A stretch of DNA of 64,000 bases from Escherichia coli (GCF_003019035.1 NZ_CP027447.1); one strand, 5' to 3'. Shown: positions 13,342-15,813, numbered from the stretch's first letter. Notes: generated by a model not told the origin, from the sequence alone. A program made the numbers and translations.

Positions 13342-13887
<546 letters not shown>

Positions 13888-13896
13888 GAGAATTGC

Positions 13897-14688
13897 ATGA
13901 GCAGTAACTTCAGACATCAACTATTGAGTCTGTCGTTACTGGTTGGTATAGCGGCCCCCTGGGCCGCTTTTGCTCAGGCACCAATCAGTAGTGTCGGCTC
14001 AGGCTCGGTCGAAGACCGCGTCACTCAACTTGAGCGTATTTCTAATGCTCACAGCCAGCTTTTAACCCAACTCCAGCAACAACTCTCTGATAATCAATCC
14101 GATATTGATTCCCTGCGTGGTCAGATTCAGGAAAATCAGTATCAACTGAATCAGGTCGTGGAGCGGCAAAAGCAGATCCTGTTGCAGATCGACAGCCTCA
14201 GCAGCGGTGGTGCAGCGGCGCAATCAACCAGCGGTGATCAAAGCGGTGCGGCGGCATCAACGACGCCGACAGCTGATGCTGGTACTGCGAATGCTGGCGC
14301 GCCGGTGAAAAGCGGTGATGCAAACACGGATTACAATGCAGCTATTGCGCTGGTGCAGGATAAATCCCGCCAGGATGACGCAATGGTGGCATTTCAGAAT
14401 TTCATCAAAAATTACCCTGATTCAACTTACCTGCCAAACGCCAATTATTGGCTGGGTCAGTTAAACTACAACAAGGGTAAAAAAGATGATGCGGCGTATT
14501 ATTTTGCTTCGGTAGTGAAAAACTATCCGAAGTCACCGAAGGCTGCAGATGCGATGTTTAAAGTCGGCGTCATCATGCAGGACAAAGGTGACACCGCAAA
14601 AGCGAAAGCCGTATACCAGCAGGTTATCAGTAAATACCCTGGTACTGATGGCGCTAAACAGGCGCAAAAACGTCTGAACGCGATGTAA
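13897..14688 (+). CDS. cpoB: Cell division coordinator CpoB (YbgF), TPR protein
   Basis: 263 aa with signal peptide, coiled coil and C-terminal TPR repeats; last gene of the tol-pal operon. Confidence 0.95.
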   Translation: MSSNFRHQLLSLSLLVGIAAPWAAFAQAPISSVGSGSVEDRVTQLERISNAHSQLLTQLQQQLSDNQSDIDSLRGQIQENQYQLNQVVERQKQILLQIDSLSSGGAAAQSTSGDQSGAAASTTPTADAGTANAGAPVKSGDANTDYNAAIALVQDKSRQDDAMVAFQNFIKNYPDSTYLPNANYWLGQLNYNKGKKDDAAYYFASVVKNYPKSPKAADAMFKVGVIMQDKGDTAKAKAVYQQVISKYPGTDGAKQAQKRLNAM

Positions 14689-14852: not shown

Positions 14853-14928
14853 GGGTCGTTAGCTCAGTTGGTAGAGCAGTTGACTTTTAATCAATTGGTC
14901 GCAGGTTCGAATCCTGCACGACCCACCA
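14853..14928 (+). tRNA. lysT: tRNA-Lys (anticodon UUU)
   Basis: 76-nt cloverleaf sequence GGGTCGTTAGCTCAGTTGGTAGAGC...CACGACCCACCA with encoded CCA. Confidence 0.97.
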
Positions 14929-15063
14929 ATCGCTAAGGTGGAAGCGGTAGTAAAACGTGAAGGATAACGTTGCGTCAGCAACGGCCCGAAGGGCGAGACG
15001 AAGTCGAGTCATCCTGCACGACCCACCACTAACATAGTTAGTTGTAGTATCCAGCGTAGTATC

Positions 15064-15139
15064 GGGTGATTAGCTCAGCTGGGAGAGCACCTCCCTTACA
15101 AGGAGGGGGTCGGCGGTTCGATCCCGTCATCACCCACCA
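15064..15139 (+). tRNA. valT: tRNA-Val (anticodon UAC)
   Basis: 76-nt GGGTGATTAGCTCAGCTGGGAGAGC...CATCACCCACCA. Confidence 0.97.
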
Positions 15140-15141
15140 CC

Positions 15142-15217
15142 GGGTCGTTAGCTCAGTTGGTAGAGCAGTTGACTTTTAATCAATTGGTCGCAGGTTCGAA
15201 TCCTGCACGACCCACCA
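15142..15217 (+). tRNA. lysW: tRNA-Lys (UUU)
   Basis: Identical copy of the tRNA-Lys sequence. Confidence 0.97.
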
Positions 15218-15268
15218 CTAATTACGGTGGGTTCGGTGGAAGTAGTTTGTAGTATCCAGCGCAGTATC

Positions 15269-15344
15269 GGGTGATTAGCTCAGCTGGGAGAGCACCTCCC
15301 TTACAAGGAGGGGGTCGGCGGTTCGATCCCGTCATCACCCACCA
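15269..15344 (+). tRNA. valZ: tRNA-Val (UAC)
   Basis: Identical copy of the tRNA-Val sequence. Confidence 0.97.
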
Positions 15345-15347
15345 CTC

Positions 15348-15423
15348 GGGTCGTTAGCTCAGTTGGTAGAGCAGTTGACTTTTAATCAATTGGTCGCAGG
15401 TTCGAATCCTGCACGACCCACCA
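15348..15423 (+). tRNA. lysY: tRNA-Lys (UUU)
   Basis: Identical copy of tRNA-Lys. Confidence 0.97.
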
Positions 15424-15471
15424 ATTTTAAAGATTGGTTCCGAGTAGAAATCTTTCAGGTAACACCCGTAT

Positions 15472-15547
15472 GGGTCGTTAGCTCAGTTGGTAGAGCAGTT
15501 GACTTTTAATCAATTGGTCGCAGGTTCGAATCCTGCACGACCCACCA
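15472..15547 (+). tRNA. lysZ: tRNA-Lys (UUU)
   Basis: Identical copy of tRNA-Lys. Confidence 0.97.
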
Positions 15548-15580
15548 TCCTGAATGATTAAAGCAGCATAATCCCGCAAG

Positions 15581-15656
15581 GGGTCGTTAGCTCAGTTGGT
15601 AGAGCAGTTGACTTTTAATCAATTGGTCGCAGGTTCGAATCCTGCACGACCCACCA
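15581..15656 (+). tRNA. lysQ: tRNA-Lys (UUU)
   Basis: Identical copy of tRNA-Lys. Confidence 0.97.
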
Positions 15657-15660
15657 ATGT

Positions 15661-15690
15661 AAAAAAGCGCCCTAAAGGCGCTTTTTTGCT
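15661..15690 (+). terminator. Rho-independent terminator of the tRNA operon
   Basis: aaaaaagcgcc-ctaa-aggcgcttttttg hairpin with T-run immediately after lysQ. Confidence 0.85.
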
Positions 15691-15813
15691 ATTCAGGCAT
15701 CCTCAATTTCACTGTGTAACCTGATGACATCTTCAGAGCTTACTGTGCAAGCAACTCTACGTCGGTGGAATTAGGCGTAATTCGAGTGACTTTTCCCCAC
15801 CATTCGACTATCT

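Follow-up and report, generated by a model that had tools for sequence, protein, structure and literature searches.

The 135-nt spacer between the tRNA genes lysT and valT of the Escherichia coli chromosome analysed here very probably contains one short-type tRNA-linked repeat (TLR; Rfam RtT), which is orthologous to the first of five TLRs in the lysT operon of strain K-12. The repeat family is already known, and the sequence-only reading that had pointed to the spacer was thus a correct rediscovery: the observation is real, and it is ordinary.

The window, that is, the whole 64,000-nt stretch of DNA that was analysed, contained an operon of seven tRNA genes flanked by cpoB and nadA, as determined by ARAGORN together with the annotation, and over this 1.1-kb region it was 100% identical to E. 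coli strain FDAARGOS_497. The tRNA-Lys(UUU) gene lysT (14853-14928, + strand) scored 79.2 bits with the Rfam tRNA model, and the next gene of the operon was valT, encoding tRNA-Val(UAC) (15064-15139, + strand). These were followed by lysW (15142-15217), valZ (15269-15344), lysY (15348-15423), lysZ (15472-15547) and lysQ (15581-15656), all called by ARAGORN. The limits of lysT and valT set the spacer at exactly 14929-15063. A tRNA gene or pseudogene within these 135 nt was considered and rejected, as both ARAGORN and the Rfam tRNA model called none there and only acceptor-stem and T-stem strands were recognisable.

The repeat itself was exact. The sequence ATCCTGCACGACCCACCA at 15011-15028 was identical at 18 of 18 positions to the end of lysT (14911-14928, + strand, the first copy in the repeat-family search), with 100 nt from start to start and 82 nt between the two copies. 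This 18-mer occurred six times in the window without mismatch, namely in the five tRNA-Lys genes and in the spacer, while 100 shuffled sequences gave no occurrence even when up to two mismatches were tolerated. The earlier statement that the last 18 nt of tRNA-Lys recur about 80 nt past the intact gene was therefore confirmed far above chance, and the reservation that the repeat might turn out shorter or more degenerate on careful alignment fell away, since the full 18 nt aligned with no mismatch.

The assignment to the family was made with Rfam RF00391. The RtT model matched 14860-15028 at 60.6 bits against a gathering threshold of 45 (E = 2.4e-9 for the whole window), and the match terminated precisely on the CCA of the copy, at 15028. 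Model positions 1-59 were aligned to the genuine tRNA-Lys body, with a 44-nt insertion, and only the cassette and the 3' copy lay in the spacer, so that the short unit fits the RtT architecture over no more than its 3' two-thirds; the 5' module of the model was present in the long-type units at proK, at tyrT and after lysQ. The unit in the spacer (14929-15028, + strand) was composed of a trailer, a 5' arm, a three-hairpin cassette and the copy of the tRNA-Lys end.

The first TLRs were described at tyrT in 1978 (Egan & Landy), and a catalogue by Rudd followed in 1999; they amount to 22 copies at ten K-12 loci, with one to five per locus, and their hallmark is that the last 18-19 bp exactly repeat the 3' end of the immediately upstream gene (PMC8144298). 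The unit described here agreed with this definition in its position, its 3' end and its core. It begins at the base after the CCA of lysT, directly 3' of a stable-RNA gene in a tRNA operon, it ends in 18 of 18 nucleotides of that gene, and its core is similar to those of Lys-linked and Arg-linked units of eight genera and of the units at tyrT, proK and 5S. A K-12-type genome gave five RtT matches in the operon, after lysT, lysW, lysY, lysZ and lysQ, and all of them ended in the identical 18 nt. PMC8144298 does not name lysT; from these five matches and its figure of one to five copies per locus, we infer that the 22 K-12 TLRs include the lysT-valT unit. The PGAP label 'RtT sRNA' was attached to only the last of the five units in the K-12-type genome, and in the RefSeq annotation the unit of the window and most in-array copies carried no label, so that such copies appear anomalous to a naive reader. 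Two further structured RNAs reached the Rfam gathering level in the window, both on the + strand and separate from the TLR: a CpoB/ybgF intercistronic RNA thermometer at 13788-13926 (142 bits) and a molybdenum-cofactor riboswitch at 50423-50567 (103 bits).

Anatomy and fold of the unit

All parts of the unit lie on the + strand. It opens with a site-specific trailer of about 27 nt (14929-14955), in which CGCU (14931-14934) and AGCG (14943-14946) form a hairpin; orthologues in Citrobacter and Pluralibacter have an ATCG...CGAT-type hairpin with other letters. The closing stem follows with its 5' strand CGUGAAGGAU (14956-14965), which pairs with 15011-15020 in both the minimum free energy (MFE) and the centroid fold with a single A.G mismatch. 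Enclosed by this stem are three hairpins: hairpin 1, CGUUGC-GUCA-GCAACG (14968-14983); hairpin 2 (14984-14994), a 4-bp stem of GCCC (14984-14987) and GGGC (14991-14994) closed by a GAA loop; and hairpin 3, GAC-GAA-GUC (14997-15005), whose stem differs in length and sequence among units. The second copy of the repeat (15011-15028) serves at the same time as the 3' strand of the closing stem. It is identical to tRNA-Lys positions 59-76 and thus spans the end of the T-loop, the 3' strand of the T-stem, the 3' strand of the acceptor stem, A73 and CCA. The remaining 35 nt (15029-15063) are a second trailer, the valT leader, which stands directly after lysT in strains without the unit, as shown by the 35-nt spacers of E41-1 and O157:H7 PA20.

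Hairpin 2 had previously been described as a GNRA-type hairpin, ggcc-cgaa-gggc. The arms quoted there are not complementary, and the actual element, GCCC-GAA-GGGC, carries a GNA triloop. The loop in homologues was GAA, GUA, GCA or GGA, with the middle base varying. The spacer of the window was 98.5% identical to that of K-12, and the two differences both fell in the loop of hairpin 1 (GUCA in the window, AUGA in K-12).

The whole unit folded at -35.5 kcal/mol (z = -2.5), with z = -3.6 for 14953-15028; Arg-type and long Lys-type units adopted an identical topology with z near -4, the overall range being -2.5 to -4.4. In the predicted fold, the unit is a cloverleaf-shaped, minihelix-like pseudo-tRNA that ends in ...ACCCACCA and in which the cassette stands in the place of the T-loop. 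The MFE fold also contained an outer helix between GGUGG of the trailer (14937-14941) and the complementary CCACC of the tRNA-Lys end, which was rejected as a structural part of the unit because it was not conserved in Pluralibacter. GGTGG(G) motifs were found in several tRNA-Lys trailers of the window (14937-14941, 15226-15231 and 15235-15239), where they are complementary to the CCCACC a few bases upstream, and similar motifs occur in the Lys trailers of Citrobacter and P. vulneris; judged from the sequence, they could pair with the 3' end of unprocessed tRNA-Lys.

The fold was examined by comparison in an alignment of 20 short units (A1), which had been found via a pattern inside hairpin 2. 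Mean column identity was 81% across the Arg-linked and Lys-linked units of eight genera. The proposed pairs were formed in 86.9% of cases, as against 28-43% when the partners were slid, and the covariation score of 0.101 compared with 0.033 in shuffled alignments was reached in none of 500 shuffles. The closing stem was paired in 89.5% of cases, and its pair 16-77 read UA in the Lys units, GC in those of Arg type and AU in P. vulneris. Columns 55-57 and 62-64 of hairpin 3 were 100% paired, with the middle pair being GC in ten units, AU in four, UA in two and CG in one. Hairpin 1 was 99% paired and nearly invariant in A1; at the equivalent hairpin of eight long Lys-type units, both sides changed in a compensatory manner and the pairing was kept. 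Informative pairs in A1 were few, namely the middle pair of hairpin 3 and pair 16-77, since most stem pairs were invariant, and the invariance of hairpin 2 is circular and therefore uninformative because the search pattern lay inside it.

Not only the 3' copy but also the 5' arm resembled the preceding tRNA. The 5' strand of the closing stem in Arg units, GCACCAG-GGAGG, compares with GCATCCG-GGAGG in the 5' strands of the tRNA acceptor and T-stems, and that in Lys units, ..ACGT-GAAGG, compares with GGGTCGT-GCAGG in tRNA-Lys. With both arms tRNA-like, the short TLR resembles an acceptor/T-arm minihelix of the neighbouring tRNA in which the cassette replaces the T-loop. In P. vulneris, the first tRNA-Arg has A7-T66 and not G7-C66, and the TLR behind it has A and T at the matching positions; the next tRNA-Arg retains G-C. 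Gene conversion can explain the 3' side of this TLR. For the 5' side, either the pairing would have to be selected or the strand regenerated from the tRNA; as a single observation, the case is no more than suggestive.

Family members at other stable-RNA loci

A shared cassette of the form ..(G)AACGTTGC-N3/4-GCAACGGCCCG-N-AGGGCGAG-hairpin-GAGTnAT was found in units from Salmonella, Citrobacter, E. albertii, Enterobacter, Pluralibacter, Pseudescherichia, Superficieibacter, Erwinia and an unclassified soil MAG. The cross-species scan with the pattern ACGGCCCGNAGGGCGAG returned at least 120 loci, of which about two thirds were GC-rich chance matches, and the loci named here are accordingly examples and not a distribution. 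In 40 of the 45 units with a called upstream tRNA among the matches listed, the end of that tRNA, over at least its last 18 nt, recurred without change 11-17 nt past the cassette; the tRNAs copied among these matches were Lys(UUU), Pro(CGG), Pro(UGG) and Arg(ACG). The copy mirrored the variants of each species, such as the tRNA-Lys of Citrobacter R56 (...CACGCCCCACCA) and the tRNA-Arg of P. vulneris (CCTCCTGGATGC). Salmonella had the cassette ahead of Pro-end and of Arg-end copies, eight further genera had it ahead of Lys, Pro and Arg ends, the tyrT/rttR units finished in Tyr sequence, and a unit located after rrf opened with GAACGTTGC-GAA-GCAACGGCCCGGAGGG and finished in 5S sequence.

Among the known systems, the RtT RNA (rttR) of the tyrT-tyrV operon (RF00391; Bosl & Kersten 1991) has the cassette ..AACGTTGC-N4-GCAACGrCCCGAAGGGyGA.. 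and a tRNA-end copy, as does the lysT unit. The tyrT units are of the long type, about 178 nt each, with one between tyrT and tyrV and three in tandem after tyrV, and include an additional 5' module (GGATGAGAA..AAGGTTCGACTCGAGCG..) as well as the annotated tpr ORF. The lysT unit differs from them in being of the short type (100 nt), single and operon-internal, and in having a Lys and not a Tyr end. The RrA, RrB and RrF TLRs share with it the start of the cassette and the copy of the upstream RNA end; unlike the lysT unit, they are linked to 5S, lie between the rrn terminators T1 and T2, have GGA motifs, and bind Hfq and CsrA in vitro (PMC8144298). This binding has been shown for the three 5S-linked TLRs only, and the 19 tRNA-linked TLRs scored <0.01 in a predictor of CsrA binders (PMC8144298). 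The 3'ETS-leuZ is another non-tRNA RNA processed from a polycistronic tRNA precursor and acts as a sponge (Lalaouna 2015, via PMC8144298); unlike the lysT TLR, it is of unrelated sequence, has no tRNA-end copy, and pairs with RyhB and RybB.

A TLR cassette was located between the two terminators after the 5S rRNA in E. coli rrn operons. A 119-nt stretch taken as part of the rrnB T1-T2 fragment of cloning vectors matched E. coli chromosomes at 100%. If it does belong to that fragment, many laboratory plasmids would carry a TLR.

The comparison with other Enterobacteriaceae had been proposed as a way to see whether the extra segment is lineage-specific, and it is not. In Citrobacter werkmanii, the tRNA-Lys gene ahead of tRNA-Val was followed by an orthologous unit whose trailer hairpin was homologous and whose downstream leader was the same. 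The homologous unit of Pluralibacter gergoviae ran into the beginning of a similar leader, and this locus ended before any downstream tRNA. The subtypes crossed the genera: the 'atcg..' type of lysT was found in E. coli, Citrobacter and Pluralibacter, and a 'ttttaacatc..gatgttaa' type in E. coli, Pluralibacter and P. vulneris. This grouping by locus across genera, and not by genome, argues for vertical descent with no recent movement.

Two irregular loci were noted within the family range. In Pluralibacter gergoviae (L058, - strand, oriented 95-160), a 66-nt Lys-Lys spacer joined a 'ttttaacgtc..gacg' trailer hairpin to a 'ggtggtaacgagtgaag..tttcagg' trailer, without a cassette or repeat between the two trailers. 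Either this spacer never had a TLR or the TLR was deleted by a route other than the 18-nt repeats. At the proK locus of Salmonella houtenae (L005, 1386-1420), the third of three tandem Pro units was truncated, reading GGGCGAG-CCATCCTCTC and then unrelated sequence, with the loss of hairpin 3 and most of the tRNA-end copy.

Allelic variation, transcription and competing explanations

The lysT-valT unit was present in 3,597 of 5,426 complete E. coli genomes (at least 80% of the spacer matched), leaving about one third of the genomes without it, and some strains lacked all five units of the operon. In about a quarter of the 'spread' sample (24-28%, an estimate from this sample and two fully read loci), the match was confined to the last 53 nt of the spacer and lay directly at an annotated tRNA-Lys. 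Strain E41-1 had no TLR unit at all, with spacers of 35, 2, 51, 3, 48 and 33 nt; O157:H7 PA20 had six tRNAs instead of seven and one unit, in lysY-lysZ only; the strain of the window had one, in lysT-valT only; and K-12 had five. The 35-nt lysT-valT spacer of both E41-1 and O157:H7 PA20 corresponded to 15029-15063 of the window and is a precise empty allele. Conversely, the sites after lysW, lysY, lysZ and lysQ (15218-15268, 15424-15471, 15548-15580 and 15657-15700), which are filled in K-12, were empty in the window. About 23% of the genomes had the overall layout of the window.

The empty allele consists of the tRNA and the trailer that follows the TLR, as expected from a deletion between two 18-nt repeats. 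Slippage or recombination between the two copies would allow the precise loss of one 100-nt unit and so give rise to filled and empty alleles. Judged from these alleles, loss would be the simpler direction given the presence of the unit in other genera. The E. coli alleles with zero to five units are natural deletions with which effects on the processing of tRNA-Lys and tRNA-Val or on fitness can be tested.

The K-12 operon is transcribed as one polycistronic transcript, from which RNase P separates the tRNAs and in which RNase E cuts in the long Lys-proximal spacers. In wild-type K-12, probes for the spacers revealed few intermediates, and no stable spacer RNA was reported. A consensus scan of the + strand of the spacer gave no match to a promoter or terminator; the scan is weak, as it also missed the obvious terminator of lysQ at 15661-15687. 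The TLR would thus be transcribed inside the tRNA operon, without a promoter or terminator of its own and at operon rates, and the single polycistronic transcript of K-12 is consistent with such synthesis followed by excision. The separation of the tRNAs by RNase P and RNase E would release the TLR as a by-product, and the borrowed tRNA end would give it a tRNA-like 3' terminus, on which 3'-trimming enzymes should stop at CCA. The scarcity of intermediates in the wild type suggests that the TLR RNA may be short-lived.

Several explanations for the unit were weighed beside its membership in the TLR family. The strongest of them, possible but on balance unlikely, is that the unit is a selected functional RNA, be it a mimic of a tRNA minihelix, a decoy, a processing aid, or a sponge for a protein or sRNA. 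The structure is conserved with compensatory changes, both strands of the TLR track the tRNA-Arg variant, the same site is occupied across genera, the differences from K-12 fall in a loop, and the 5S-linked relatives bind Hfq and CsrA in vitro. Against this, the many strains without the unit, one third of E. coli and some without all five, show it to be dispensable and argue for a neutral or near-neutral passenger; the 19 tRNA-linked TLRs were scored below 0.01 as CsrA binders; and a stable spacer RNA is not on record in wild-type K-12. The function of TLRs is not known, and the sole functional claim made for rtT, a role in the stringent response, was retracted (PMC8144298). The conserved fold nevertheless argues for some constraint in the predicted structure, and the compensatory changes together with the presence/absence alleles may hint at a selected minihelix-like RNA. 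The more specific proposal that TLRs are selected mimics of the acceptor/T-arm 'minihelix' of the preceding tRNA, and not junk, rests on closing-stem strands that track A7-T66 of P. vulneris tRNA-Arg and the Lys variant of Citrobacter R56, and it must be called doubtful. If it were true, enzymes that recognise tRNA ends, namely RNase P, 3' exonucleases, the CCA-adding enzyme, synthetases or tRNA-targeting toxins, could use the RNA as a substrate or be occupied by it as a decoy, and at the DNA level the repeat could offer T-loop-targeting integrases a spare attB and so keep them off the real gene. In itself, the single lysT-valT TLR matters little.

That the unit is a non-autonomous mobile cassette, which copies itself ahead of the ends of stable-RNA genes and duplicates about 18 nt of the target, was considered improbable. 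One and the same cassette is joined to five different gene ends and the repeat length is constant at 18-19 nt; a look-alike in an Alcanivoracaceae MAG follows GGTCGA of a tRNA-Ser D-loop much as the long units follow GGTTCGA of the T-loop, and the Pluralibacter spacer with both trailer types has no cassette. The grouping of units by locus and subtype across genera, however, points to vertical descent, and neither a candidate enzyme nor copies on natural plasmids or phages were found. In addition, the repeats at lysQ, proK and tyrT run through the terminator (54 nt after lysQ), which argues that there is no fixed target duplication.

A simple local partial duplication, in which a slipped or unequal copy of the lysT end was left with an otherwise unconstrained filler, was highly improbable as an account of the unit. 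The array is indeed plastic, the number of tRNAs being six or seven and that of long spacers ranging from zero to five, and over their first ~25 nt TLR trailers are similar to those of other tRNA-Lys genes. But the supposed filler scores as RtT, aligns at 81% with units of eight genera and contains compensatory pairs, so that this explanation is refuted as sufficient and survives only as a description of how copies multiplied within the array. Of the partial gene duplication suggested in the sequence-only reading, the partial tRNA copy and a discrete unit that is present or absent were borne out, and "partial tRNA copy" is descriptively right; a simple local duplication was not, as the cassette is common to Arg, Pro, Tyr and 5S loci.

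The other suggestion of that reading, a footprint of site-specific integration, is very unlikely and close to refuted. It would have an island or prophage integrated at an attB reaching from the T-loop to the 3' end of lysT and then decayed to the att repeats and 82 nt. A direct repeat from the T-loop through CCA is reportedly the geometry of many tRNA att sites, the attL/attR repeats of islands and prophages likewise contain the 3' part of the tRNA from the T-loop, and the unit is present or absent among strains with exact boundaries. Unlike attL/attR, however, the lysT unit came with no integrase, cargo or phage similarity and encloses a structured filler common to unrelated tRNA loci, the same cassette being present at Lys, Arg, Pro, Tyr and 5S. 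No integrase, cargo or element DNA was found between or beside the repeats at the locus, whose neighbours are cpoB and nadA; only 82 nt lie between the repeats, and the longest ORFs were of 20-41 aa, apart from a 54-aa ORF running over lysT itself; the 5' arm, unlike the arm of an att site, matches 5' strands of the tRNA itself; and orthologous or homologous copies exist in Citrobacter and Pluralibacter. A phage or island origin was also rejected after the 100-nt unit had been compared by blastn ('distant' setting) with 50,697 phage records, which gave four matches and no real phage match: three were chromosomal contigs of Salmonella, and the fourth was a 7.4-kb record without annotation that had been deposited as a Salmonella phage.

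A coding role for the TLR was evaluated as well. A 20-aa ORF starting with TTG, MRQQRPEGRDEVESSCTTHH, lies over the cassette at 14970-15032 (+ strand). It shares RQxRPEGR with K-12 Tpr (RQQRPEGR in the window, RRQRPEGR in Tpr), which is itself a translated tyrT TLR. A conserved tpr-like peptide in this frame of 20-26 aa was rejected, since indels of 1 and 2 nt in hairpin 3 break the frame and the variation follows the pairing. Given such indels, the peptide is unlikely to be conserved, and the 'protamine-like protein' of tpr becomes doubtful as well.

Look-alikes beyond the Enterobacterales

Similar elements were observed outside the Enterobacterales, where Rfam named none apart from a sub-threshold RtT match in Zophobihabitans. 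The Alcanivoracaceae MAG L094 (7280-7723) contained two tandem units of 156 nt upstream of tRNA-Ser(GGA). They open with the first 22 nt of the tRNA-Ser (GGTGAGGTGTCCGAGTGGTCGA) and continue into a TLR-like cassette, a 5'-linked mirror image of the enterobacterial arrangement with no Rfam match.

Long-type TLR-like units were seen after tRNA-Ser(UGA) in the gammaproteobacterial MAG L078 (- strand, oriented 1640-1870) and after tRNA-Pro(UGG) in Zophobihabitans (L047, - strand, oriented 430-660), the latter with an RtT score of 38.4 bits, below the threshold. In both, the tRNA-end copy stopped after the T-stem strand. The copy in Zophobihabitans ran into AT-rich DNA, possibly reflecting an insertion.

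A conserved element of about 130 nt with ACGGCCCGAAGGGCGAGCGrAGCGAGTAAnATGCTCATTT, the 3' half of the cassette, was present twice in Salinicola (L025, 5856 and 8169) and once in Pseudomonas (L085, 11010); at these sites it had no adjoining tRNA and no match to an Rfam family. The 17-mer of the cross-species scan was also found in repeated elements of the Acidobacteria MAGs L026 (~8290-8800) and L107 (~600-1100), followed by CGAGTCAGCC and, about 20 nt further on, by a T-loop-like TTCRARTCCC. These acidobacterial elements may be convergent or chance resemblances. In L026, a 20-nt tRNA-like 3' end (tggtagggctaacgggattt) lay on the other strand on both sides of the element, and a weak tmRNA match of 17.7 bits was detected.
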